From: a virus | Direction: 5' to 3' (one strand) | Virus record (IMG/VR): IMGVR_UViG_3300045988_121070 | Length of the DNA stretch: 64,000 nt | Shown here: in pieces, positions 21,899 to 62,151 of the stretch | How the letters are laid out: every line of letters begins with the position of its first letter | Position numbering within the stretch: position 1 is the first letter of the stretch | Translations under genes and position numbers: made by a program | The notes under the pieces: model-generated | Database searches by the model: none | Told to the model about the DNA's origin: nothing | Seen by the model: only the letters and a program-made list of their open reading frames with translations

Positions 21899-22384
21899 CT
21901 AATGAATGAGAATGGCGAGGATAAGCGTTGTGTAGCAGAACAGTTCGAGTACAAAGATGCCCTTACCTTCGAGCCATTTAGGTATAGGCGCGAAGACAAA
22001 GTAGAGCAGTGCGAACCATAGCAGCAGCCAGTAGGGGCTGATAATGAGCACACAGAGTTGAGAGAGCACTCCAGCAGCTACTGCCAACACCGAATGTGCC
22101 GTGTTAGGATCGTTGTGGATGAGCGGCAGGGTGCCTATGAATGCCAGTGATGCGATGAACAGAAACCCGACAAACTGGAACATAGAGCCATCCATAGCGT
22201 CGAGGAGGGCAGGGCATGTGCCGAAGGCGATAGCCCAGATGAACAGCGTCCAAAGGTACTGATATTTTCGCGGGAGGTTGAAGACCATGTGCGAGACTGA
22301 TGCCGGCAGTTCCTTATGGATGTAGATAGTGGTGCCCACGTAGAGCACTGCTATCAGGACTGAGATAAGAAGTAATGTTGTCAT
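21899..22384 (-). CDS. Multi-pass membrane protein
   Basis: 161 aa, about 5 hydrophobic segments. Confidence 0.6.
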   Translation of the reverse strand: MTTLLLISVLIAVLYVGTTIYIHKELPASVSHMVFNLPRKYQYLWTLFIWAIAFGTCPALLDAMDGSMFQFVGFLFIASLAFIGTLPLIHNDPNTAHSVLAVAAGVLSQLCVLIISPYWLLLWFALLYFVFAPIPKWLEGKGIFVLELFCYTTLILAILIH

Positions 22385-22401
22385 AACTTTGGGGTTTAGG
22401 A

Positions 22402-22421
22402 CCCCGCCGAGAACGGCGGGG
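22402..22421 (-). repeat. GC hairpin family copy
   Basis: ccccgccgagaacggcgggg followed by cacggtggtta. Confidence 0.7.
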
Positions 22422-22469
22422 CACGGTGGTTAATGATATCGAGATTGAATCGCGACGCAAGAGCGAAAC

Positions 22470-23159
22470 TTACTTGAAGACCAGCTTATCGGGGTAGCCA
22501 GTGGTGAAGTCGTAGGCGATGACAGCATCCGAGATTTCCATGGCGAGGATTTCCGCCTTATGAGCTGCTGTGCAGTCATAGCACTCAGAGGCATACACTT
22601 CGAGAGCGGCGAGCATCTGCAGACCGTCGTCGATAGCCAGTGTAAAGGACATGTTCTCGTACCAGAGCGTAGAAGTAGTCTTACCCATGGACTTCTCCGC
22701 GTTGAGACGTGCGATAAGACCATTACGCATATCCTTATCGAGCCACATATTGACACCCTGGTAGGTGAATTGGTTGACAGCATCCGAACTGTCATACGTT
22801 GCCAACTGAGCCAGTTTCATGGTCTTGGCGATAGCGAGGCGGTCGCCGGTGAGGATGCCCGCATCGACGAGTGTCAGCAGTGCTTCGGCAGCGATGGCTT
22901 CGGCAGCAGTGGCAGTGAGCAATTCACCATCGTACTCATGTGCGAGCAGTGCATCCTTGACGCGTTCGATGGTAAACGGGTTCTTCAGTCGTACCACGTA
23001 GGCACGGTAGAGTGTGCGAGTTTCCGGCTCCTGACCAGCGGGAGTCTCCTCTTGTGTGTTGACAGGCACCTGTTCCTCGGTGACGTTGAACGAGATACGC
23101 AGCACGTCGCCCTCCATGGTGGCGAGGTCGGGGCGTTCAAAAAATTCTGACTTTTTCAT
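22470..23159 (-). CDS. Hypothetical protein downstream of the DGR reverse transcriptase
   Basis: 229 aa ORF. Confidence 0.6.
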   Translation of the reverse strand: MKKSEFFERPDLATMEGDVLRISFNVTEEQVPVNTQEETPAGQEPETRTLYRAYVVRLKNPFTIERVKDALLAHEYDGELLTATAAEAIAAEALLTLVDAGILTGDRLAIAKTMKLAQLATYDSSDAVNQFTYQGVNMWLDKDMRNGLIARLNAEKSMGKTTSTLWYENMSFTLAIDDGLQMLAALEVYASECYDCTAAHKAEILAMEISDAVIAYDFTTGYPDKLVFK

Positions 23160-23196
23160 AATTCAATATTTTTAAAAGGGTTATTACTATGTGGGC

Positions 23197-23216
23197 CCCA
23201 GCCGATAACGGCTGGG
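23197..23216 (-). repeat. GC hairpin family copy
   Basis: cccagccgataacggctggg followed by agtggtggcta. Confidence 0.7.
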
Positions 23217-23224
23217 AGTGGTGG

Positions 23225-24571
23225 CTATTGGATGGCATAGTCGGGTAGGCCAGAAGTGTTGGTACGCACCAATGTGCCCTTGAATGGGAATCCGTCGTGA
23301 CTATTGATGTAGAACAGCGCCTGCGTGAGTTTCTGGTTATTGGTGAAGAACTTATACTTTTGTCCGTTCTCCTCCACCTGAATGACTGTTGCCGGTTTGT
23401 TGTATTTCGATTTCACGTCAAACTCAACATCCGTAAACACTATCTCGCGTCCACAGAGCATGGATGCCGATACCTTAGTACCTTCGAGGATGCGTTTACC
23501 CTCAGCGTCCTTTTTCTCAAATGCAGGAACATTCAGATCCTTATATGATTTCATTTTCATTACAGCGCACCAGAGGTTATAGCCATTGCAGTGCATGGCC
23601 CATCCTTTGTAGCTGGCAGCGGCACGATAGCGTTTCAGCGGGTCTTTGATGCGGTGCATCTTCTGCTTAAACTTCGCCTTCATGCGTTTGCGCAGCAGTG
23701 TGTGTTTGAAGAAAAACATATAGCCCACGAAGTCGAGTCGGTGTTTCTCGTCAATGATCTGCATTCCGATATTCTCATGCAGTGGCTGTTCCATGACCTC
23801 ATCGGCATACTTTTTGATGAAGTTGACCGCTTTCCACACCTCTTTCTTATTGGTGCCAACGATCACCATATCATCGCAGTATATCTCCATCCACACGTCG
23901 AAGAGCATCATTACCAGTCGGCACAGCGGGCATGTGTAGTAGTTGGCGATAGGCTGTATTGGGAACAGTCCGATGCCCAGTCCGCTGTCACATGCCGTCA
24001 CTATCTCACGGATGAGATAGCGGATGCCCTTATTGCCGAACTTCTTAGCCAGGTGGTTATACACCTTATCCTGGTCGATATTATGATAGAACTTCACGAA
24101 GTCCAGTTTGACGAAATAGATGCGGTCGTTATGCTTGCGGTGAATGTCGATATACCTTTTGGTACGACGAGCCGCGAAGTGCATCCCCTTACCTTTGATA
24201 GATGCCGAAGAGTCGTAGTAATACGCCCGCATCATGGTAGGCATAATGACCTGCATCAGTGCATGGTTCTCGATATGGTCAGGAAAATATGGCAGTTTAT
24301 GAAGCACACGGTCCTTCCCGCATGGACAGTGTCGTACACACTCATGTCCTGGGGAAGTATGGTATGCTTCATTTTTCAGCAAATCGTGCAAGAGATTGAG
24401 ATTGCCTTGTGGGTCGCGGTCGAACAAGCGTACTCCCTTGTGCGCATCCTTCCCCCGTCGAGCCTCTATGTCGGCTTGACGCAGGTTCAACGGGTCATAG
24501 ACCTGTTGGATGCGCAGTTTTCTATTCTTTCCGCGCAGGCGTTTCTTACGTTGATAAGCTAATTCTGCCAT
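23225..24571 (-). CDS. Reverse transcriptase of the diversity-generating retroelement
   Basis: 448 aa. RT motifs FVKLDFVKFYHNI and IYCDDMVIVG (YxDD box). Lies immediately 3' of a TR that matches two VRs. Confidence 0.85.
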   Translation of the reverse strand: MAELAYQRKKRLRGKNRKLRIQQVYDPLNLRQADIEARRGKDAHKGVRLFDRDPQGNLNLLHDLLKNEAYHTSPGHECVRHCPCGKDRVLHKLPYFPDHIENHALMQVIMPTMMRAYYYDSSASIKGKGMHFAARRTKRYIDIHRKHNDRIYFVKLDFVKFYHNIDQDKVYNHLAKKFGNKGIRYLIREIVTACDSGLGIGLFPIQPIANYYTCPLCRLVMMLFDVWMEIYCDDMVIVGTNKKEVWKAVNFIKKYADEVMEQPLHENIGMQIIDEKHRLDFVGYMFFFKHTLLRKRMKAKFKQKMHRIKDPLKRYRAAASYKGWAMHCNGYNLWCAVMKMKSYKDLNVPAFEKKDAEGKRILEGTKVSASMLCGREIVFTDVEFDVKSKYNKPATVIQVEENGQKYKFFTNNQKLTQALFYINSHDGFPFKGTLVRTNTSGLPDYAIQ

Positions 24572-24589
24572 TGTTTCTCTTCATTTATT

Positions 24590-24610
24590 CCCAGCGGGCG
24601 AACCGCTGGG
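24590..24610 (-). repeat. GC hairpin family copy
   Basis: cccagcgggcgaaccgctggg followed by cacagtagtggtta. Confidence 0.7.
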
Positions 24611-24944
24611 CACAGTAGTGGTTACTTTTGACACAGATGTGATGGGAGGGCCTTCTACATTTCTTGGCTCACGGGTGTTCGGTATATGCGTACAACTGCA
24701 TTGCTTACTTGCGCGAGGGGACTTTGTTGTCCGACGATGTGATAGCGCATCTTTGTGTCAGACTCATACCCAATGCCTTTTATCTTTGCTCTGTCAGGTA
24801 GAGAGGACAAAGGGGGGAAACCGCTTTGCACTCGCTAACCCTCCATCGAGACAGGCTCAATCGTGTGCTCATCCTCTTTGGCTTTCGCGAAGTCAGTGAG
24901 GACAAACAGTGGAAACATATCAGATAACTCTTTTTTTGTTCAAT

Positions 24945-25063
24945 GTAGATGTTCAGGCGAGCGCCGATGTTCGTGTTCGAGTTCGAGAAACCGTTATTCG
25001 AGTTCGCATACGAAAGACCGCATTGCGCACCGTTATTCGCGTTACCCCCGACGTTCAGCAGCT
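24945..25063 (-). repeat. DGR template repeat (TR)
   Basis: 119 nt. About 30 coding-strand adenines. Encodes the Asn-rich GGNANNGAQCGLSYANSNNGFSNSNTNIGARLNIY. Aligns to VR1 and VR2. Confidence 0.9.
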
Positions 25064-25293
25064 CCACGATATGTTGCCTTTTCCTCCGTTTCCCCGTTGA
25101 GCTGTAGAAGGCTCGAACAACCTATGTTGCTATTCTCTTTGGGGAAGGAGTCTATCAGTTTGTATGTTCAGGAAGTCAATCCCTGACATCAAGTGTCTCA
25201 GTAAGTCAATTTTTTATGGATGGTCACGCTCTTGTGACTTCACCTCTTGATGTGACTTTTTTAATTGTTATTACTCTTGTTACTTTTTTACAT

Positions 25294-25313
25294 CCCAGCC
25301 GAAACCGGCTGGG
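25294..25313 (-). repeat. GC hairpin family copy
   Basis: cccagccgaaaccggctggg followed by cactgtgg, between target 1 and the TR. Confidence 0.7.
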
Positions 25314-25375
25314 CACTGTGGCGAAAGCCGCAGAGAGGGAGCGAGCCGGATGCCGGCTGGCCAATGATTGTCCGC

Positions 25376-26629
25376 TTACGCGGAAATCATGGCCACCAGC
25401 TCCGCACCGCTCACGAATATCGGTTCTCCGTAGAAGGCCAGGCGAGCGCCGATGTTCGTGTACGAGGTCGAGAAACCGCTAGCCGAGTACGCAGACGAAA
25501 GACCGCATGGCGCACCGCTATCCGCGTAACCCCCGACGAACAGCAGCTGACCACCCGTAGCGAACCAATACCCATCGCAGTAGTATGTATTAGAACCGGC
25601 ACCAACAGCCTGGCATATCATATCCCAGTATTCGCCCAGTTCCATGCTCTTAGCATAAGTACCACTGCCACTCTGAGAAGAGAGGGCACAGACAAACTCA
25701 CGGCCTTCAGCGGTATTGCTGACAATATTGCCGTCATAGACGATAGCATAGCGCACGTCGTCGCGCATCTCGAAGCGGATGCCAGGACGGAACTCCCACA
25801 GTTTGCCCCATAGGTCCTCGAAGCCGAACAGCTTGACAGGATATTGGTCGCCGATGGTGGCATCCGTATAGAACACCTTACCTGAACCGTCGCCTAATGA
25901 CTTACAGAGGCCCATAGGCACGTTACGAGCAGCCTCCCATGAACTCGTCTGGAATCCAGCACCGATAACCTCCTGAGAGTTCAGCGAGCCATAGCGGGCC
26001 TGGAAGAGCGCATTGATAAGACAATGGAAGCCATAGTTAGCCAATCCCCACTGTGTGCCGAGCTGCTGTGCGCAGTTCCAGAAGGCGCTCATTGTCTTAG
26101 AATGGCCAGGAGCCACGTTCGGGCGTGAGTGTCCGGCACCGCCACCATCTACTGACATCTTGTAAGCACCTACCCAATGCGGTGAGCCAAAGACATGTCC
26201 TCCGTCAATAGGTACGAGACCGCCGAAGTTCAGCGTCTTGTTTTCTCCGAGGAAATGGCAGTCAGGCACATGGATCATCGTCTCACATGCTGCTTCTATA
26301 GCTGCTGTGACAGGTGTTGCATCCGCGAACTTATCCCATGTAGAGCCATTCAGTTTGGCAGCATATACCTTTCCGTCCTTGCGGAAAAACATATAGCCAC
26401 CCATCTGAGCCTGATAGAGTTCTGCAGCACCACGATTATTGACCGTGAATGCAGGGTTAGAGTTTTCTTCCAACGTGTGTTTGGAAGCGAGCGCACCGAC
26501 CACCGTTGACGGAATGGCCGCATTAGCAACCTCAGAAGGCATTGCTTCATAGAAGTTGCTTGCACTGGTGACACACAACACACGAGCGATGCCTTCACCA
26601 GGGTTGAGAGTTGTTTTTGCTTTCTTCAT
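25376..26629 (-). CDS. DGR target protein 1 (C-terminal variable, C-type-lectin/FGE-like domain), probable receptor-binding protein
   Basis: 417 aa. The C-terminus ...GGYADSGAPCGLSSAYSASGFSTSYTNIGARLAFY is encoded by VR1. Sits in the tail-fibre module. Confidence 0.85.
   Translation of the reverse strand: MKKAKTTLNPGEGIARVLCVTSASNFYEAMPSEVANAAIPSTVVGALASKHTLEENSNPAFTVNNRGAAELYQAQMGGYMFFRKDGKVYAAKLNGSTWDKFADATPVTAAIEAACETMIHVPDCHFLGENKTLNFGGLVPIDGGHVFGSPHWVGAYKMSVDGGGAGHSRPNVAPGHSKTMSAFWNCAQQLGTQWGLANYGFHCLINALFQARYGSLNSQEVIGAGFQTSSWEAARNVPMGLCKSLGDGSGKVFYTDATIGDQYPVKLFGFEDLWGKLWEFRPGIRFEMRDDVRYAIVYDGNIVSNTAEGREFVCALSSQSGSGTYAKSMELGEYWDMICQAVGAGSNTYYCDGYWFATGGQLLFVGGYADSGAPCGLSSAYSASGFSTSYTNIGARLAFYGEPIFVSGAELVAMISA
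25430..25548 (-). repeat. DGR variable repeat 1 (VR1)
   Basis: Hand alignment to the TR gives 119 nt with 16 differences. All 16 are at plus-strand T of the TR, which is coding-strand A. Confidence 0.9.
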
Positions 26630-26670
26630 TTCGTTTTATTTTAAAGGGTTATTATTAAAGCCTTTAGCGG

Positions 26671-26690
26671 CCCAGCCGAGAACGGCTGGG
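26671..26690 (-). repeat. GC hairpin family copy
   Basis: cccagccgagaacggctggg followed by agtggtggtta. Confidence 0.7.
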
Positions 26691-26698
26691 AGTGGTGG

Positions 26699-27883
26699 TT
26701 ATGTGCGAATGGCGATAGTGTTTCCGTCGGACAGTTGGATAAGTTCTCCGTCTTCATCGGCGAGGACATCATAGACTGTGCGTAGAGAGACAAATGGGTC
26801 CACGAGATATTTCACGCCGAACGTATTGAATAGTTTGTTGCCAGGCACCGTCACCTCCATGCCATACTCTCCGAGCATTTCAGGAGGATTTGTCGATCCC
26901 TGTTGACGTATGCCCCAGTTTGGCATGAGCCAGTGGCGTTTCTGTTCGGCAGTCATATCATTATGCTTTGCCACATGCACCATCATGCCAAACGTCATCC
27001 ATGCCGACTCTGGGAATACACGGTTGCCACCATAGGAGAACACCGTAGGCAGAATCTTAGGAAAGCGCCATGCAATAGCTGCTGTTGCCTCGTTATGGAT
27101 ATCTGGAGCCGCTGTTGACGTGCCGTTGTTTACACCAATGCGACAGCGCACCAGGATGTCCTCTATAAAGTCCATATCGACCGCCAGTGTCGCGCTATTC
27201 TTACCGTTGACATACCATAGGCAGTCTTCCGTGATGGCGAGCCATGTAGCGCCAGCATCCAGAGAGTAGTCCCAGAACCACGCCACCTGAGCCGTCTTAT
27301 CCACGCCACCCAGTCGTGCTTCCGCCTCGAAAGTGTAGATGGTGGTAGCAGCAGACAGCGGGAAGTGCTTACGAGTGCGGTCACACAGGATATTGATGCT
27401 CCACTGTTCGTCAGCCTGCAATACAGCCGACAATGAGAGCGTGTCGGACATGATCTGAGGAGAAGACGTGCGCGTGTCAACGAAGCGGCATTCACAATAC
27501 ACCTTGACACCATTCTGATGAGTGAAGTTCTTACGGACGTAGAGAAGATCGCCCACCAGGTAGTAGTCAGCCGTTGCATCCGTTGTCGTAACCTGCGTAT
27601 CGTTGACGTACCAGTATATCTGAGGTACGATGCTCTCCACGTCCAGGTTCTTATCGACATCGTATATCGTATATTCCGCTTGCAGTCGAAGTGCTCCATC
27701 CGTCTGTTGGCCATGCGCATCGATGACCGGCGCAATGGAATGATCCGGCAGCCACTCCTGTGTAGTCTGTCTATAAAACTGGAGTGATGACATGCCACCC
27801 AGAATAACGATTTTCATCGCCGTGTTCAGTGGGCGGAAAGTCGTCGAGACCGCAAACGGTTGTGAGTTTTGGAGTTGTTTCAT
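26699..27883 (-). CDS. Hypothetical tail-module protein
   Basis: ATG 27883 (MKQLQNSQPF...). The track start at 27919 lies inside the PAL-A palindrome. Confidence 0.6.
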   Translation of the reverse strand: MKQLQNSQPFAVSTTFRPLNTAMKIVILGGMSSLQFYRQTTQEWLPDHSIAPVIDAHGQQTDGALRLQAEYTIYDVDKNLDVESIVPQIYWYVNDTQVTTTDATADYYLVGDLLYVRKNFTHQNGVKVYCECRFVDTRTSSPQIMSDTLSLSAVLQADEQWSINILCDRTRKHFPLSAATTIYTFEAEARLGGVDKTAQVAWFWDYSLDAGATWLAITEDCLWYVNGKNSATLAVDMDFIEDILVRCRIGVNNGTSTAAPDIHNEATAAIAWRFPKILPTVFSYGGNRVFPESAWMTFGMMVHVAKHNDMTAEQKRHWLMPNWGIRQQGSTNPPEMLGEYGMEVTVPGNKLFNTFGVKYLVDPFVSLRTVYDVLADEDGELIQLSDGNTIAIRT

Positions 27884-30904: not shown

Positions 30905-31574
30905 CAGGCATCTGCCAGGTTCCCTCCGAGTTCTGTATCATATCAACAACCTGTTTGTCGGTAAGACCATAGCGACGAGCAAACTTCTTTTTCTCCTCGT
31001 CGGTATAGTTTACGCGGTCGCGCTTTACAACCGACACATCGCCTGTGATGTTGATTTCCGAATCCGGCATCTGTTCAGCCGCATTCTCTTTCTCCTGGAA
31101 GTTGTTATTGAGTTGCATTTTCAGGTCGGCACCCGACTTGACGCTGCGAGGGTCGCCCATTTTCATTCCCTCACGGATGAGCCAGTCGGAGGCATCCTGT
31201 ACCTTTGCCTTCTCGATATTCTCCGTTGGTACGTCGAAGCGTCCGATGATATGGTTGAAGAGCGCCACGTCGTTAGATATCTCCGTTGGTGTGCGAGGAA
31301 TACCAGGGCGTATGTTCATCGCATCGACATACTCAATGGCTTTGGAGTCGCCAGCTGCTGCTTTCTGAAGCAGTACGGGATATTCACGGGCAGCGATACG
31401 GCGCATGATGTCGGTTGGTCGTATCTGTTTATCTTGCAGCCATATTTTATACGCTTCGTAGGCGAGGAGCGCACGGAAACGCTGATCGGGTGACATAATC
31501 ATCTTATCGATGGTGATGCCACCCAGCAGCCAGCGTTCTACTTTGTCGAAATATTTTTCTGAGGGTTTTGACAT
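30852..31574 (-). CDS. Putative terminase small subunit or DNA-packaging accessory protein
   Basis: 240 aa ORF overlapping the terL start. The call rests on position only. Confidence 0.4.
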   Translation of the reverse strand: MSKPSEKYFDKVERWLLGGITIDKMIMSPDQRFRALLAYEAYKIWLQDKQIRPTDIMRRIAAREYPVLLQKAAAGDSKAIEYVDAMNIRPGIPRTPTEISNDVALFNHIIGRFDVPTENIEKAKVQDASDWLIREGMKMGDPRSVKSGADLKMQLNNNFQEKENAAEQMPDSEINITGDVSVVKRDRVNYTDEEKKKFARRYGLTDKQVVDMIQNSEGTWQMPDEQPEPEPEKDIFDENG

Positions 31575-31592
31575 GATGAGAAGGGGAGATAC

Positions 31593-31607
31593 GGCGATTT
31601 AATCGCC
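31593..31607. promoter_or_regulatory. PAL-B copy
   Basis: ggcgatttaatcgcc followed by tgacaaaaacgaaacaaggg. Confidence 0.6.
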
Positions 31608-31667
31608 TGACAAAAACGAAACAAGGGAGGCTATGGCATAGCCACATACGATACAGACGGGACAGAA

Positions 31668-31688
31668 CCCAGCGGGCGAACCGCTGGG
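31668..31688 (-). repeat. GC hairpin family copy
   Basis: cccagcgggcgaaccgctggg followed by cactgttgtta. Confidence 0.7.
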
Positions 31689-31696
31689 CACTGTTG

Positions 31697-32056
31697 TTAT
31701 GAGCGCATCTTAGCGTAGTGCTTACGCTTGCGCAAGTTATATTTATCCTTACCTGTGCGCATGAGATATTCGCCATAGTCCTTTGGCGACATGCCATAGT
31801 TGCCCGCCATGAGGTGAGTACCGAAGGGACCATAAGGATTGTTAGCGAACGTGCGTACCACCTTTGCTGGAGTGCGTGATGTAGCCTGCTGTCCCTGGTT
31901 GACAGAGCGCTGTGCAGGTGCTTTCTGTTCGATTTGGGGACTATTGGACTGAGCCGTCTGACTAATGACCTGCTGACCGGCAGGTGACGATATAAGGCCA
32001 CCCATGACGGCGGCAGCGCCTGCTAACATAGCAGACATGAGACTTTTCTTTTTCAT
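31697..32056 (-). CDS. Small hypothetical protein with N-terminal hydrophobic segment
   Basis: 119 aa, starting MKKKSLMSAMLAGAAAVMGGLISS. Confidence 0.45.
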   Translation of the reverse strand: MKKKSLMSAMLAGAAAVMGGLISSPAGQQVISQTAQSNSPQIEQKAPAQRSVNQGQQATSRTPAKVVRTFANNPYGPFGTHLMAGNYGMSPKDYGEYLMRTGKDKYNLRKRKHYAKMRS

Positions 32057-44413: not shown

Positions 44414-45181
44414 TTAAAATAATGTTTGTTGTGATAATTCTATTTTGATATTCTTCTCAGCCATTGCGAAATACTCAGGATGAATTTCAAAGCCAATGTA
44501 ATGGCTTTTCTCCTTGATAGCTGCTATGGCTGTTGTTCCGCTACCTATGAAAGGGTCGAGAATTACCCCCCCCCGTGGCACGAAAAAATGTATGAGCGTC
44601 TGAGGTAAAAGAAGCGGGAATGCTGCCCGATGCTTACCTTTGTGGTTCTTTCCAATTCTCAACACATTGGATAGTTTACCACGTTCAGCGTTCAATAGAG
44701 GAAACTGGCGGCCTTTACAGTCGTGCTTATCGAAAGCGATGATAAATTCATACTCACAGTTGAGCACTCCTGAGTGCATGGCCGGTTCAGACGATTTCTT
44801 ATCCCAGATAAGGATATCACGGATGCGGTCAGCATAGTGGCCAAAGATTTTCATCAGAGCCACCTTATTACCTGTTATCATCATTATGTTATAGAAGACA
44901 GGTCCATTGCTGACACGTAACATTTCGTCGATACACTGACATTGCCAGTTGAAATAGTCATCCATTGACATTGCATCATTCACACGGTTGTCGTAACGAT
45001 TAGCAGGGAGGCCGGTATAACCAAACGTCTCTCCTTTCGTCCATTTGGTATATTTACCAGAATGGATGCGTAGGCCGAAGTTATAAGGCGGTGAAGTGAT
45101 AACAGCATTTACGCTGTTATCCTCCATCTGCCTCATTCCTTCGAGACAATCCATGTTGTATATGGTGTCAATGTTCATCAT
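44414..45181 (-). CDS. N4-cytosine/N6-adenine DNA methyltransferase (beta class)
   Basis: From ATG 45181: MMNIDTIYNMDCLEGM...VITSPPYNF (motif IV) ... ILDPFIGSGTTAIAA (motif I). The track N-terminal extension to 45358 is an out-of-frame read through VR2. Confidence 0.8.
   Translation of the reverse strand: MMNIDTIYNMDCLEGMRQMEDNSVNAVITSPPYNFGLRIHSGKYTKWTKGETFGYTGLPANRYDNRVNDAMSMDDYFNWQCQCIDEMLRVSNGPVFYNIMMITGNKVALMKIFGHYADRIRDILIWDKKSSEPAMHSGVLNCEYEFIIAFDKHDCKGRQFPLLNAERGKLSNVLRIGKNHKGKHRAAFPLLLPQTLIHFFVPRGGVILDPFIGSGTTAIAAIKEKSHYIGFEIHPEYFAMAEKNIKIELSQQTLF
44566..44574 (-). repeat. Homopolymer: G9 on the coding strand
   Basis: Encodes PRGGV just before motif I. In frame as sequenced. Plus-strand context aattaCCCCCCCCCgtgg. 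Confidence 0.9.
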
Positions 45182-45182
45182 A

Positions 45183-46010
45183 TTACTTCTGCTCTTCAGG
45201 AATTGGTTTGAAGACCAGGGCCGACCATAGCGCAGCGAATTGGCGACCAGCGTATTTCGCAAGTTCGCTCGATTTGAAGGCCAGGCGAGCGCCGAAGCAC
45301 GCGTTCGAGCGCGAGAAACCGAGACTCGAGTCCGCAGCCGAAAGACCGCAGCGCGCACCGCTAGCCGCGAGACCCCCGACGATCAGCAGCTGTGCCTTAT
45401 CATCCTCACTCATTTCGTCTATCTCCTTCTGGGTATAGAGGTAGAAGTAAGGATAGTAGCGATATTCATCCTCAGTGAATTGTGGCACCCATCCTTCATT
45501 GAGGGCATAGGTGATGATGCGGAGCTGGATGTAAGCAAGCAGGTCAGGTGTACGTGGCGAATTAAACCAGAGGTCTATCATCAGTTCGTTAGCCAGTTTG
45601 TCGCCAGCCTGAGCACGGCGATTGAGGTCATTGCAAGCATCCTCAAAGGTCTTGATGCGTTCTGTGACGGGGCGGTTGTCTGGAGTTTCTGTTTCATCCG
45701 CAGGTATGATGCAAGACCAATCCTCTGCCAAAATATCCTCCCATGAGGGAATGTAGTAGGTGGCAGAAGCCGGTGTTTTACCGTCGTCTGTGAAGGTAAT
45801 CATAATCACCTGGTCGTGGTAGGATATTTCGCCACTTCCAACGGTGCTAATCTTTGGTTTGATAGATGCTGGCAGGGATGTCATCTTTGGCACCACATCC
45901 TTTGCTATACATTGGGGGATCTGCATGACGATTTCCTGATTGTCATGCCACGTAGAACGGGAGGCATGGCCACCCTTTTTCAGACATTCAATAACTGCTG
46001 GAAAATTCAT
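45183..46010 (-). CDS. DGR target protein 2: DUF2829-like N-terminal domain fused to a VR-bearing C-type-lectin/FGE-like domain
   Basis: From ATG 46010: MNFPAVIECLKKGGHASRSTWHDNQ...ATYYIPSWEDILAEDWSCI. The C-terminal GGLAASGARCGLSAADSSLGFSRSNACFGARLAFK is encoded by VR2. Confidence 0.8.
   Translation of the reverse strand: MNFPAVIECLKKGGHASRSTWHDNQEIVMQIPQCIAKDVVPKMTSLPASIKPKISTVGSGEISYHDQVIMITFTDDGKTPASATYYIPSWEDILAEDWSCIIPADETETPDNRPVTERIKTFEDACNDLNRRAQAGDKLANELMIDLWFNSPRTPDLLAYIQLRIITYALNEGWVPQFTEDEYRYYPYFYLYTQKEIDEMSEDDKAQLLIVGGLAASGARCGLSAADSSLGFSRSNACFGARLAFKSSELAKYAGRQFAALWSALVFKPIPEEQK
45276..45391 (-). repeat. DGR variable repeat 2 (VR2), about 20 kb from the TR
   Basis: Hand alignment to TR 24948-25063 gives 116 nt with 23 differences. 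22 are at coding-strand A of the TR. One is a non-adenine change. Confidence 0.85.
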
Positions 46011-46029
46011 ATTACTTTTGGTTATTAGA

Positions 46030-46049
46030 CCCCGCCGTTCTCGGCGGGG
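46030..46049 (-). repeat. GC hairpin family copy with inverted loop
   Basis: ccccgccgttctcggcgggg followed by catgggtta. Confidence 0.6.
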
Positions 46050-46055
46050 CATGGG

Positions 46056-60783: not shown

Positions 60784-62151
60784 CTAACCTTTGGCACGGA
60801 TGGCTGCGATTTCTTCATCAGAGAGTTTGTGATCGGTGACGGTGTAGTAAATCTTAGCGGCAGCATCCGTCTCGTTTTTGGAGAGGAACTTTATCACGCT
60901 GTCCGGCTTCAGGAAGAACTTTTCACTAACCTCCTCTTCGAGAATGTCAGCGATGCAGGTGGTGAGTTCAAAGGGACGCGGGAACTCATACTGCGTATCG
61001 CCGAGGATATCCTGACGGATGGAGATCATATAGACCCGTTCGCGGTTCTGAGCTACGCCATAGTGTTTGCTGTTCAGAATGCCAAACTTCGTTTTCTTCT
61101 CACGTTTCTCTTTGCCCCAGGGGTAAGGGAATGACGGTGCGAGGAAGTTGACATAGCCATGTTTCTCCAGTAGGGCGCACCATTCTTTGAAGTCGGGCAT
61201 GTTGACGCTGTTAATGAGGGCAGAGACATTTTCCTGAAGGAGGATTTTCGGGCGCATCTGTTCAACAGCCTTTTCGGTGTACCAAAGGACTGCAGAGCGG
61301 GTGTCAGAGCCTTTTTTGATGCCCGCACGTTTTCCCGCCTGACTGATGGACTGACAGGGCGTGGAGTAAGTCAAGAAATCGATGTCAGCATCCGAGAGGT
61401 CGCTCCAGTCACATTTGGTCATGTCGCCCCTATTGAGGGAGGCATACTGCGGGAAGAGCAAGTTATGAGCAACCACGGCAGGCTGTTCATTGATTGGCCT
61501 TTTGCTTTCGGGGTCGAACTCAGCCCATGCCACGAGTTCATAGGCGAAATCAGGATAACGCTCACGGAGCATGTCAAAGGCTATGCACTGGGAGTCATAG
61601 CCAGAGCAAAGCGTAACCACCTTCAGAGGCTGTTCGCAGAAATTGCGAGACATCTGGAAAGTGGGTAGCGCAAACATATCCTGCACTTCACCAGGTATGC
61701 GGCGGTCGGTGGGGAATAAAAAAGCCTCGTAGATATACATGAGGACATCGCAGACGATTGAATTGCCAGCGAGCTTGTAGTGGTTGGAGTTGGAGATTAT
61801 CTGCACGGGGCCAAAACGCTCTTCGGTTTTGGCGGCCTTGATTTTTTCGTAAGCAAGGGTGTAGTTCTGACGGAGGAGTTCTATTTCCTCGGCATCATCA
61901 TCCTCTTCATCCCCAGCGACGGAATCACTGGGCACAGTATCTGGAGCATCTGCAGGTGCTTCGTTTTCTTCATCTGAGGGAGGTGTTTCGAGGCTTTCCA
62001 AAGAATCGCGGAAGGCTTCTTCTACTTCTTTCATTGTTGCCGAGGGTTCCAAACCGAACACGCTTAACTCATTATCGACATCAACGAAAGCGGTGTATGA
62101 CTTTTGTTCAGTAGCCATCAACTGAGAAATCTGGCGTTCAGGAACGCCCAT
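60784..62151 (-). CDS. DNA (cytosine-5) methyltransferase catalytic core, circularly permuted (motif X precedes motif I)
   Basis: YKLAGNSIVCDVL (X), VTLCSGYDSQ (I), TYSTPCQSIS (IV), ILLQENVSAL (VI), GVAQNRERVY (VIII). As sequenced the ORF begins at MGVPE, in the middle of motif IX. Confidence 0.85.
   Translation of the reverse strand: MGVPERQISQLMATEQKSYTAFVDVDNELSVFGLEPSATMKEVEEAFRDSLESLETPPSDEENEAPADAPDTVPSDSVAGDEEDDDAEEIELLRQNYTLAYEKIKAAKTEERFGPVQIISNSNHYKLAGNSIVCDVLMYIYEAFLFPTDRRIPGEVQDMFALPTFQMSRNFCEQPLKVVTLCSGYDSQCIAFDMLRERYPDFAYELVAWAEFDPESKRPINEQPAVVAHNLLFPQYASLNRGDMTKCDWSDLSDADIDFLTYSTPCQSISQAGKRAGIKKGSDTRSAVLWYTEKAVEQMRPKILLQENVSALINSVNMPDFKEWCALLEKHGYVNFLAPSFPYPWGKEKREKKTKFGILNSKHYGVAQNRERVYMISIRQDILGDTQYEFPRPFELTTCIADILEEEVSEKFFLKPDSVIKFLSKNETDAAAKIYYTVTDHKLSDEEIAAIRAKG

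Follow-up and report, generated by a model that had tools for sequence, protein, structure and literature searches.

A two-target diversity-generating retroelement in a human-gut phage, with a tail-fibre-like and a Tad2-like-domain protein as targets

The locus described here places a reverse transcriptase (RT) gene beside long repeats in the tail-fibre module of an uncultivated human-gut phage with a genome of ~104 kb, raising the question of whether it is an active diversity-generating retroelement (DGR) and, if so, which proteins it rewrites. The window, by which we mean the whole 64,000-nucleotide stretch that was analysed, comes from a phage whose host is probably a member of the Bacteroidota; a nucleotide search of GenBank phages with the DGR region and 24 kb of the genome returned no match. 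Taken as a whole, the locus is best explained as an active DGR with two targets, a reading to which we assign a probability of about 0.92. It is a known kind of system with one unusual target, since it rewrites the tip of a tail fibre and, in addition, a protein with a Tad2-like domain.

Repeats and adenine-specific variation

The repeats, their 3' ends and the two genes that carry the variable copies are as follows.

24945-25063, minus strand: TR, 119 nt with 30 adenines, mostly in AAY codons
25430-25548, minus strand: VR1, in the 3' part of target 1
45276-45391, minus strand: VR2, corresponding to TR positions 1-116
24948..24965, minus strand: IMH*-like 3' end of the TR, GGCGCTCGCCTGAACATC, with 3 fixed differences from every VR copy
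25433..25450, minus strand: IMH-like 3' end of VR1, GGCGCTCGCCTGGCCTTC
45276-45293, minus strand: IMH-like end of VR2
25376..26629, minus strand: target 1, a 417-aa tail-fibre-like protein with a variable C-terminal domain of predicted C-type-lectin fold
45183..46010, minus strand: target 2, a 275-aa non-structural protein carrying VR2, whose homologs start MNF...

A software repeat search recovered the pair 24938-25063 and 25423-25548, and alignment bore out the description of TR and VR1 in the first-pass annotation as collinear over 119 nt (offset +485, 0 gaps, 16 mismatches). The claim made there by hand, that all 16 differences fall at adenines of the TR coding (minus) strand, holds under software alignment (16/16; hypergeometric P=5.4e-12, 30 A in 119 nt), with A>T 6, A>G 5 and A>C 5. 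Three of these 16 (TR positions 111, 112 and 114) are to be set apart, however, as the TR reads AACA where every VR in every genome reads GCCT; they are the fixed difference between IMH and IMH* and not outcomes of mutagenesis, a share of the 3' A-mismatch signal that the annotation had not separated. VR2, which it had also named, exists ~20 kb from the cassette (offset +20328), and 22 of its 23 mismatches to the TR lie at A sites, the remaining one being T>G. A 13-mer (GGCGCTCGCCTGG) described as invariant in TR, VR1 and VR2 is so over its first 12 nt, while base 13 is A in the TR and G in both VRs. The G/C-rich 3' element accordingly ends ...CTGGCCTTC in VR1 and VR2 (IMH) and ...CTGAACATC in the TR (IMH*): GGCGCTCGCCTG is common to TR and VRs, and leads into GCCT in every copy of VR1 and VR2 and into AACA in every TR. 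The peptide encoded by the TR is rich in Asn codons, as quoted previously, and because its adenines sit in AAY (also CAA, TAT, ACG and ATC) codons no stop codon can arise; by our own calculation ~1e14 peptides are possible.

Comparison between 13 near-identical genomes from independent gut metagenomes provides a population test. The TR is identical (119/119) in all 13, even where RT identity falls to 92%, and the same genomes hold 11 distinct VR1 and 4 distinct VR2 sequences. Every one of the 26 TR adenines that lie upstream of the IMH varies between genomes, compared with 2 of the 87 other positions, and two genomes (L001 and L002) differ at 14 VR1 positions despite 99.4% identity over 21 kb. 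Between genomes of independent samples the TR is constant and the VRs vary at adenine sites: the element is a bona fide DGR, evidently and recently active.

Reverse transcriptase, RNA elements and cassette layout

The cassette and its surroundings contain the following further features.

23225..24571, minus strand: DGR RT, 448 aa, with YCDD, motif IGLFPIQ, and matches to Pfam RVT_1 and phrog_1423
23228..23539, minus strand: C-terminal extension of the RT (~aa 345-448), OB-like, predicted beta1-beta2-beta3-alpha-beta4-beta5
22470..23159, minus strand: DUF4376 protein, encoded by the next gene downstream after the RT (Pfam match 6e-05, just under the gathering score)
24650..24871, minus strand: structured RNA-like element in the TR-RT spacer, with conserved blocks and pairing in 9 lineages
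25339..25412, minus strand: long hairpin 3' of VR1, 31 bp in the window, with the target 1 stop codon in its tetraloop (GTAA)
25294..25313, minus strand: copy, in the target 1-TR interval, of the intergenic hairpin CCCAGCCG-N4-CGGCTGGG that recurs throughout the genome

The RT proposed from its YCDD box is indeed an intact minus-strand ORF, matching phrog_1423 (4e-63) as well as RVT_1. Its best PDB sequence match is bRT 8ub7 (1.7e-17, full length; group II RT 8e-4), and 8ub7 is also the top Foldseek match to its AF2 model (pLDDT 86; E=1.3e-16, TM 0.76). By sequence and predicted structure the enzyme thus appears nearest to the Bordetella phage bRT, within the DGR group, and its tblastn relatives include the RTs of Hankyphage, LoVEphage, crAss-like phages and Bordetella phage. 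DGR RTs carry the signature [I/V/L]GxxxSQ in place of QGxxxSP; the motif here, IGL(F/Y)PIQ, keeps the Ile, the Gly and the final Gln, with Ser replaced by Ile in 42 of 43 clade members. An NCBIfam scan gave sub-threshold group II, retron and DRT matches only, and no DGR-specific model. Residues R88 (bRT R74), I200 (bRT I181) and Q206 are conserved in the 43 clade members, in which the catalytic YCDD is invariant, and the equivalent bRT positions are important for adenine mutagenesis (PMC7826257). The C-terminal extension is modelled with pLDDT ~90 over aa 370-440 and matches phrog_19665, with no match among Pfam families or PDB sequences. It is conserved in the clade and in the Hankyphage RT (alignment to aa 441) and missing from bRT; 120/120 listed RT homologs are ~445-465 aa long.

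Avd is common in DGRs but not universal. Here, in a point that goes beyond the first-pass annotation, Avd (PF05635) found no match in the 42 small ORFs of the window, nor in ~18 kb of flanking genome, and the TR-RT and target 1-TR spacers contain no ORF conserved in any relative. A 46-aa basic ORF (25224-25364) and a TR-frame ORF (24780-25067) were considered as Avd-like and rejected, neither being conserved in relatives. This DGR may be independent of Avd. It is a tentative and rather doubtful extension that the RT clade at large works without Avd, in which case its own OB-like C-terminal domain and the structured RNA may stand in for it.

That RNA, likewise absent from the first-pass annotation, lies in the TR-RT spacer. 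Across 9 lineages (RTs 55-92% identical) near-invariant blocks are separated by hairpin inserts of variable length, 96.8% of cells are paired as against 26-43% in slid controls, and compensatory changes occur in spacer helix 7 (3 pairs) and in the helix between the TR 3' end and the spacer (1 pair), the spacer 3' end (ARTGTAGAAGGC) being able to pair with the TR 3' end. By analogy, the element is a candidate counterpart of the BPP-1 'Sp' region. An Rfam scan of 22000-27000 found no match (neither group II intron nor retron ncRNA), and nhmmer found none for the spacer RNA in the Hankyphage, LoVEphage, cr10_1 and fEV-1 loci. The hairpin 3' of VR1 is present in 9/9 lineages with differing, covarying arm sequences (15-31 bp, z -4 to -8); it was scored sequence by sequence rather than from the MAFFT alignment, because indels put the latter out of register. 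Of the 60 gene ends of the window it has the strongest fold (-26.0 kcal/mol; mean -7.9, sd 5.3), and the same gene-end folding finds no comparable hairpin downstream of VR2. We regard it as a candidate target-recognition cruciform. The shorter intergenic hairpin, which occurs 21 times in the window where 0.24 copies would be expected, likely separates the target 1 transcript from the TR-RT unit at its 25294..25313 copy. The TR-RT cassette as a whole is placed between the fibre gene (target 1) and the DUF4376 gene. DUF4376 has been reported in tail-fibre chaperones and receptor-binding proteins, so the idea that its product is a new DGR accessory factor was dropped; by analogy it is probably a tail-fibre chaperone for target 1.

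In the scheme we propose, the TR would be transcribed together with the conserved structured spacer (~220 nt) 3' of it, giving an RNA intermediate from which the adjacent DGR-clade RT would make cDNA, primed through the TR-end/spacer duplex and faithful except opposite adenines, where any base could be inserted. The cDNA would then replace the homologous VR at the 3' end of either of two genes, with directionality set by the difference between IMH and IMH*, and at VR1 the stop-codon hairpin would probably aid target recognition. The biological roles that we infer for the two targets complete the scheme.

Two other accounts of the locus were weighed. Paralogous or recombining repeats, or assembly artefacts, could lie beside an unrelated RT of a retron, group II intron or defence system, as the weak sub-threshold NCBIfam matches and a database protein joining both targets (P0083) might suggest; but adenine specificity is strict over three repeat copies and 13 genomes, the longest exact stretch common to TR and VRs (~15 nt) is too short for de Bruijn chimeras, bRT is the closest match to the RT by sequence as well as by structure, and Rfam gives no group II intron or retron RNA. 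The adenine-specificity, RT and Rfam tests refute this account, which we hold to be vanishingly improbable. A DGR that was active in an ancestor and is now inert, its VR differences being inherited lineage markers, would fit the missing Avd match (small ORFs and spacers of the window) and the Ile in place of the signature-motif Ser. Set against this are 11 distinct VR1 among 13 genomes that are 97-99.4% identical elsewhere, the 14 VR1 differences within the closest of these comparisons (L001/L002), a TR without a single change where the RT has diverged by 8%, an intact RT ORF with YCDD, R88 and I200 invariant in 43 homologs, and clear constraint on the spacer RNA and hairpin. A fossil element is accordingly quite improbable, and we retain the active DGR.

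The two target proteins

Target 1, the 417-aa protein of ORF 25376-26629 that had been placed in the tail module, occupies a tail-module position and matches the tail protein family phrog_5302 (9e-36). VR1 ends 18 codons ahead of its stop. The target 1 profile matches TaqVP 5vf4 (2.5e-6) over a GNVWEW-like motif and the VR, so that the C-terminal domain, for which a C-type-lectin (CLec) or FGE-like fold had been suggested, can be assigned the former by homology. Homologous C-termini sit just upstream of the RTs in cr10_1 and fEV-1. As a tail-fibre-like receptor-binding protein with a CLec tip, target 1 would most likely shift in adsorption specificity when VR1 is diversified.

Target 2, which the first-pass annotation had not distinguished from tail proteins, is of a different nature. 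It carries one further feature.

45714..46010, minus strand: Tad2-like (DUF2829, PF11195) N-terminal domain of target 2, Pfam 4.5e-11

We take the gene to start at 46010; a 289-aa reading was rejected because its first 14 codons are a copy of the intergenic hairpin. Residues 1-99 score 43.6 bits against PF11195 (cut-off 25) and align over their full length with the solved Tad2 sponges 8wjd, 9eib and 8v3e. VR2 lies near the 3' end of the gene, and profile-profile comparison aligns the two targets over the 44-residue VR alone: they share the templated 40-residue module, but the scaffolds that carry it are unrelated. The target 2 gene, 20 kb off, belongs to a module of nucleotide metabolism and DNA modification and not to a structural one, its neighbours being a radical-SAM-like gene and an N6/N4 DNA methyltransferase. 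The AF2 model (pLDDT 60, VR loop <50, with low confidence over the Tad2-like domain as well) is too poor for the variable domain to be given a fold; it produced a weak Foldseek match to Tad2 (E=0.5) and no CLec fold, and a search of PDB sequences with the target 2 profile returned nothing relevant. The closest standalone homologs of the Tad2-like domain are 65-72% identical. Fusion of this domain to a DGR variable domain is confined to this lineage, and we found no description of it in the literature. One database protein, P0083, combines targets 1 and 2 in a chimera formed by way of the VR.

Those Tad2 homologs that have been tested act as sponges for immune signals and are versatile in function (PMC12393519), and target 2 most likely has an intracellular part in phage-host conflict. 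That the DGR retunes it as a diversified Tad2-type immune-signal sponge is a narrower and somewhat unlikely proposal, under which its binding partners may be, for example, variable host defence proteins or signals. A role outside counter-defence, with the Tad2-like domain as a tetramerising or adaptor scaffold for an adhesion or virion protein, or as a neutral recent shuffle, is a serious contender whose chances fall a little short of even. It would accord with the poor target 2 model, with restriction of the fusion to one 50%-identity cluster and with the variable domain occurring mostly without Tad2 (in ~200-aa forms and with other N-termini). Yet homologs as distant as 65% identity preserve the fusion in frame across linkers of differing length, with PF11195 carried by 14 of the 120 best clusters (654 sequences), and both the sponge activity of tested Tad2 homologs and the genomic setting of target 2 speak for counter-defence, as does the homologous target of LoVEphage/Quimbyvirus, which lies among methyltransferases and a tRNA ligase (PMC8008677).

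Relation to described systems

DGRs of gut Bacteroidota phages are well documented, so the presence of one here is in itself unsurprising. Among described systems, those of Quimbyvirus/LoVEphage and Hankyphage are the closest relatives of the present DGR. LoVEphage/Quimbyvirus (~71-75 kb Bacteroides phages; Benler 2021, PMC8008677; MW660583) share the two-target layout with a fibre-like target beside TR-RT, and the LoVEphage 'tail collar fiber protein' is 33% identical to target 1 over its full length. Their second target is remote and non-structural and, as here, has DNA methyltransferase and radical SAM neighbours, and its variable domain shares 47% identity with aa 131-280 of target 2; the LoVEphage TR peptide is homologous and both its VRs carry adenine-specific mismatches. 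They differ in their backbone, with no nucleotide match to this phage, in an RT split over overlapping ORFs where ours is one intact ORF, in VR2 being on the opposite strand (here the same), and in a second target without the Tad2-like domain. The RT of Hankyphage (Bacteroides phage p00) gives the most complete alignment among annotated phages (29% over aa 21-441, with the C-terminal extension covered), the locus runs VR-TR-RT-DUF4376 (DUF4376 1e-06) as it does here, and the VR/TR ends are homologous (IGSRLAF; CTGGCCTTC vs CTGAAC...). The C-terminus of the Hankyphage target can be aligned with aa 175-416 of target 1, and Avd is similarly not detectable by homology. Hankyphage, however, is temperate and Mu-like, with a genome of 43 kb and one target of 2,200 aa, and the spacer RNA of the present clade is not detectable in it by nhmmer.

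Likeness to the prototype BPP-1 (mtd-avd-TR-brt) extends to RT fold and key residues, adenine mutagenesis, AAY codons, a G/C-rich IMH with TR-specific differences, a hairpin 3' of the VR, a CLec-fold tail-fibre target and an RNA spacer 3' of the TR that pairs with the TR end. BPP-1, in contrast, has one target and requires Avd, encoded between VR and TR, and its bRT (328 aa) is without the OB-like domain. The BPP-1 hairpin is reportedly short and not centred on the stop codon, unlike that at VR1. Departures of the present element from the textbook cassette are thus the lack of a detectable Avd, the OB-like RT domain, the spacer RNA, the stop-codon hairpin and the Tad2-like fusion. The first four could explain Hankyphage-type DGRs without recognisable Avd, and could serve engineering; the dozens of near-identical genomes, with one TR and many VRs, are an unusually clean natural data set. 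The fusion gives a functional handle on the puzzling family of second, non-structural DGR targets that came to notice with Quimbyvirus, and since the variable domain is joined to a recognisable anti-defence domain, the idea that DGRs also diversify phage counter-defence becomes testable at the bench. If true, a phage would be retuning an anti-immunity factor at the speed of mutagenic homing.

More distant likenesses concern single components. TaqVP (PDB 5vf4) aligns with target 1 at the GNVWEW-type motif and a C-terminal variable segment ending GARxAF, with only ~30 bits of similarity, and is a bacterial protein that, unlike target 1, is not part of a tail. Known Tad2/DUF2829 anti-Thoeris sponges (SPO1 Tad2, SptTad2, ModTad2, HgmTad2), with which target 2 aa 1-99 aligns end to end, are standalone proteins of ~90-100 aa, a family characterised by oligomerisation and by sequestering nucleotide signals of immunity, whereas the domain here, with putative ligand binding, is fused to a DGR-diversified one. 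The Bacuni phages of Bacteroides uniformis (PMC8143477), in which, unlike here, Avd is annotated, resemble this phage by description in having a DGR that has one target next to it and another far off.

The two-target retroelement and its variable repeats

A repeat search of the window recovers a direct repeat (24938-25063 and 25423-25548) within a diversity-generating retroelement (DGR) region, every gene of which is carried on the minus strand. The features concerned are as follows.

22470-23159, minus strand: DUF4376 gene
23225-24571, minus strand: reverse transcriptase (RT)
24945-25063, minus strand: TR
25376-26629, minus strand: target 1
25430-25548, minus strand: VR1, within target 1
45183-46010: target 2
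45276-45391: VR2, within target 2

The first-pass annotation had described, by hand, a 119-nt TR collinear with VR1 and differing from it only at adenines. Software alignment bears this out: 24945-25063 and 25430-25548 align at an offset of +485 with zero gaps, and 16/16 mismatches fall at an A of the TR coding strand (A>T 6, A>G 5, A>C 5), a confinement with a hypergeometric P of 5.4e-12 for 30 A in the 119-nt TR. VR2, a third copy of the repeat, has 22 mismatches at adenine sites and one T>G. By inspection, the adenines of the TR, which encodes the peptide LLNVGGNANNGAQCGLSYANSNNGFSNSNTNIGARLNIY, are located in AAY, CAA, TAT, ACG and ATC codons, for which mutation to a stop is impossible. 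The 13-mer previously called invariant is so for only 12 nt, its last base differing between the TR (A) and the VRs (G).

In place of the read pile-ups suggested earlier, we used comparison between genomes. The exact RT protein is present in at least 91 blocks of a public assembly collection, on 100-105 kb contigs from human-gut metagenomes, and also in IMG/VR. Thirteen genomes have the TR of the window unchanged, three of them with an RT of only 92% identity, and their VR1s comprise 11 distinct sequences; VR2 is represented by four distinct sequences among five genomes. Every one of the 26 adenines in TR positions 1-110 is polymorphic across the VRs, against only 2/87 non-adenine TR positions (50 and 54). 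The adenine differences at positions 111, 112 and 114 (TR AACA, VR GCCT) are fixed in all VR1 and VR2 of all genomes, and so match what is expected of IMH, the VR 3′ element, against its TR counterpart IMH*, not mutagenesis. Two related loci, L001 and L002, are 99.4% identical across 21 kb, yet 14 VR1 sites differ. Given this divergence and the many VR1s on one TR, VR diversification is recent compared with genome divergence. The initial observation is confirmed and its interpretation as a DGR supported; we put the probability of a recently active, two-target DGR in the window at about 0.92.

At TR position 54 (window 25010), directly 5′ of a variable adenine, T>G recurs in VR2 of the window and of two other loci (L027, L030) and in VR1 of a third (L021); it could be a low-frequency non-adenine RT error or the remnant of an older TR.

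The TR of L002 itself (L002:9509-9627, ERZ28614710 scaffold_238, equivalent to window 24945-25063) carries 11 substitutions, 11/11 at adenines, while retaining the TR-type IMH* end. The VR1 of L002 does not match this altered TR, and elsewhere L002 and its sibling L001 share 99.4% identity. The pattern resembles mutagenic homing into the template, or VR-to-TR conversion; an assembly chimera does not easily explain it, as the exact stretches common to the repeats are too short for a simple chimera at this site. Another locus, L023 (RT 92% identical), has a TR with three adenine-site changes and one T>A. The apparently adenine-mutagenised TR of L002 merits follow-up.

Reverse transcriptase, relatives and the first target

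The RT is identified by Pfam RVT_1 and phrog_1423 (4e-63). Its best match among all PDB sequences is bRT, the DGR RT of Bordetella phage BPP-1 (8ub7, E=1.7e-17, full length), followed by a group II intron RT (8e-4). An AF2 model from 43 homologs (pLDDT 86) likewise has 8ub7 as its best Foldseek match (E=1.3e-16, TM 0.76 on bRT), with group II, DRT9, G2L4 and retron RTs ranked below. Residues R74 and I181 of bRT promote adenine mutagenesis (PMC7826257); the aligned R88 and I200, and also YCDD, are invariant in 43/43 members of the clade grouping with the window RT. The signature motif [I/V/L]GxxxSQ appears in this clade as IGL(F/Y)PIQ, keeping the DGR-type first and last residues with Ile in place of Ser. 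By tblastn the most complete match is the Hankyphage RT (29% identity, aa 21-441), the others including those of LoVEphage (32%, two pieces), crAss-like cr50_1 (34%, aa 29-345) and Bordetella phages.

A ~100-aa C-terminal extension of the RT is conserved and confidently predicted to adopt a β1-β2-β3-α-β4-β5 (OB-like) arrangement, and a search for sequence-level annotation of it found none. Neither the 42 small ORFs of the window nor ~18 kb of flanking genome contain PF05635 (Avd), and relatives have no conserved ORF in either spacer (VR1-TR, TR-RT). An Avd was proposed in the original Hankyphage paper from size and pI alone, and Pfam detects none in that cassette. It is a matter of speculation that the OB-like extension substitutes for Avd. 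The apparent Avd independence, taken with this domain and a dedicated RNA, is worth pursuing.

The window is phage DNA: along with tail and lysis genes it encodes a tape measure, a head protease and several DNA methyltransferases. GenBank phages contain nothing that matches it at the nucleotide level, and its protease has distant homologs only, in Bacteroidota phages. Its DGR is a further example of a well-known type, the nearest described relatives being the two-target DGR of Quimbyvirus/LoVEphage and that of Hankyphage. In LoVEphage, a target 2 homolog (47% identity) is a true second DGR target, with 19/19 VR2 mismatches to the LoVEphage TR at adenines; it lies on the opposite strand, surrounded by methyltransferases, radical SAM genes and RtcB. 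This agrees with the published description of a non-structural Quimbyvirus DGR target in a defence-related island (PMC8008677).

Target 1 (417 aa) had been assigned to the tail module, and its match to a tail PHROG (9e-36) and the other tail genes around it uphold this. Along its entire length it shares 33% identity with the LoVEphage ‘tail collar fiber protein’. The last ~240 residues can be aligned both with the variable end of the Hankyphage target and with tail-fibre C-termini situated immediately upstream of an RT, in crAss-like cr10_1 and in Yersinia phage fEV-1. A profile of target 1 and aligned relatives matches PDB 5vf4 (E=2.5e-6), the C-type-lectin-fold DGR variable protein TaqVP (10.1101/432187), the alignment spanning a GNVWEW-like motif (GFEDLWGKLWEF) and the VR (...GARLAF). 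The natural inference is that VR1 diversification amounts to diversified receptor binding.

Directly after the RT comes the DUF4376 gene. Tail-fibre chaperones and receptor-binding proteins are reported to carry DUF4376, and the gene product is a probable tail-fibre chaperone, which places the TR-RT cassette between the fibre gene and its probable chaperone; the unit seems to travel as an insert between the two. A Hankyphage DUF4376 gene (L084:5781-6266) likewise directly follows the RT, an order shared despite 29% RT identity and unrelated phage backbones.

Probable spacer RNA and hairpins

Between lineages with RTs only 55-92% identical, the TR-RT spacer consists of near-invariant blocks with variable hairpin inserts between them. 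A structure derived by hand reaches 96.8% pairing, compared with 26-43% for slid controls. Compensatory changes occur at three pairs of a hairpin whose loop is invariant, and in a helix joining the TR 3′ end (ACAYT) to the spacer 3′ end (ARTGT), an arrangement reminiscent of how TR and Sp interact in the DGR RNA of BPP-1. Support for a structured spacer RNA is moderate, since the structure was derived from the same sequences. Rfam contains no match to it, and nhmmer detects the element in the window's RT clade only.

Downstream of the VR1 IMH, after ~20 nt, comes a long hairpin that holds the target 1 stop codon in its loop. All 9/9 lineages of the clade have it, with arms of 15-31 bp that differ in sequence (z -4 to -8), and at -26.0 kcal/mol it is the strongest structure when 60 gene ends of the window are compared (-7.9, sd 5.3). 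By analogy with the target-site cruciform of BPP-1 it probably aids homing. VR2 has no such hairpin but is diversified. The only other hairpin across a stop codon among the 60 ends is that of gene 31504-32001 (20 pairs, -14.4 kcal/mol).

A separate intergenic hairpin family, CCCAGCCG-N4-CGGCTGGG, has 21 copies in the window against 0.24 expected (e.g. at 22402, 23197, 25294, 26671, 34199, 39728, 46030, 50446, 52552 and 62770), with compensatory stem variants (CCCCGCCG/CGGCGGGG, CCCAGCGG/CCGCTGGG). Copies usually lie directly past gene stops without a T-run, and the element is therefore probably a terminator, processing or stabilising element of the phage.

Target 2 and its Tad2-like domain

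We take target 2 as 275 aa (45183-46010) because homologs begin at this Met, the next one in the longest ORF. A 289-aa reading was rejected, its first 14 codons being an intergenic hairpin copy (46030-46049): within 46011-46052 the longest ORF starts inside the hairpin, and MPRRERRG... is translated hairpin. Automatic gene calls in public assemblies, at 247 aa, place the start 28 codons too far downstream and cut into the Tad2-like domain, so that it goes unrecognised in many database entries.

Over residues 1-99 there is a match to Pfam Tad2-like/DUF2829 (43.6 bits, cut-off 25), and these residues align end to end with the solved Tad2 sponges 8wjd, 9eib and 8v3e. Residues 105-266 (119-280 in 289-aa numbering) match phrog_11581, of unannotated function; the AF2 model of target 2 was too poor for a fold to be assigned to its variable domain. 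Targets 1 and 2 have in common only the templated module of 40-44 residues.

The variable-domain family is large (3,954 matches; 1,387 at E<=0.001 among 50%-identity representatives, a count that takes in matches to the Tad2-like half), and the domain mostly occurs in ~200-aa proteins or behind other N-termini. Only one cluster among 1.84 billion representatives covers both halves of target 2, and PF11195 is found in 14/120 best clusters (654 sequences). Standalone Tad2-like proteins are 65-72% identical to the N-terminal half, and the fusion stays in frame with differing linker lengths down to 65% identity (database protein P0025, 413 member sequences). By these searches the Tad2-like fusion is rare. 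No GenBank phage covers at least 80% of the protein, no paper connecting DGRs with Tad2 or DUF2829 was found in the literature, and fusions go unmentioned in a recent survey of Tad2 diversity.

In the family alignment and in loci L030 and L031, the N-terminal region is a swap hotspot, close relatives of the phage having a 25-residue β segment, an unannotated ~120-aa domain or a Tad2-like domain before the same variable domain. A further database protein, P0083, has the target 2 body followed, after the VR, by the target 1 C-terminal tail (…FYGEPIFVSGAELVAMISA), either through VR1/VR2 recombination or as an assembly chimera across the shared repeat.

Target 2 is flanked by a radical-SAM-like gene on one side and an N6/N4 DNA methyltransferase on the other, with ThyX and a primase near. 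Diversification of a counter-defence protein by the DGR is a tentative, rather doubtful reading. The Tad2-like fusion on the second target deserves further study. The window encodes at least three DNA methyltransferases (N6/N4, C5 and Dam-type; 44414-45127, 60784-62151 and one Dam-family ORF), together with ThyX, dUTPase/dCTP-deaminase-like and radical-SAM-like genes, a set that suggests an extensive capacity for DNA modification or anti-restriction in the surroundings of target 2.
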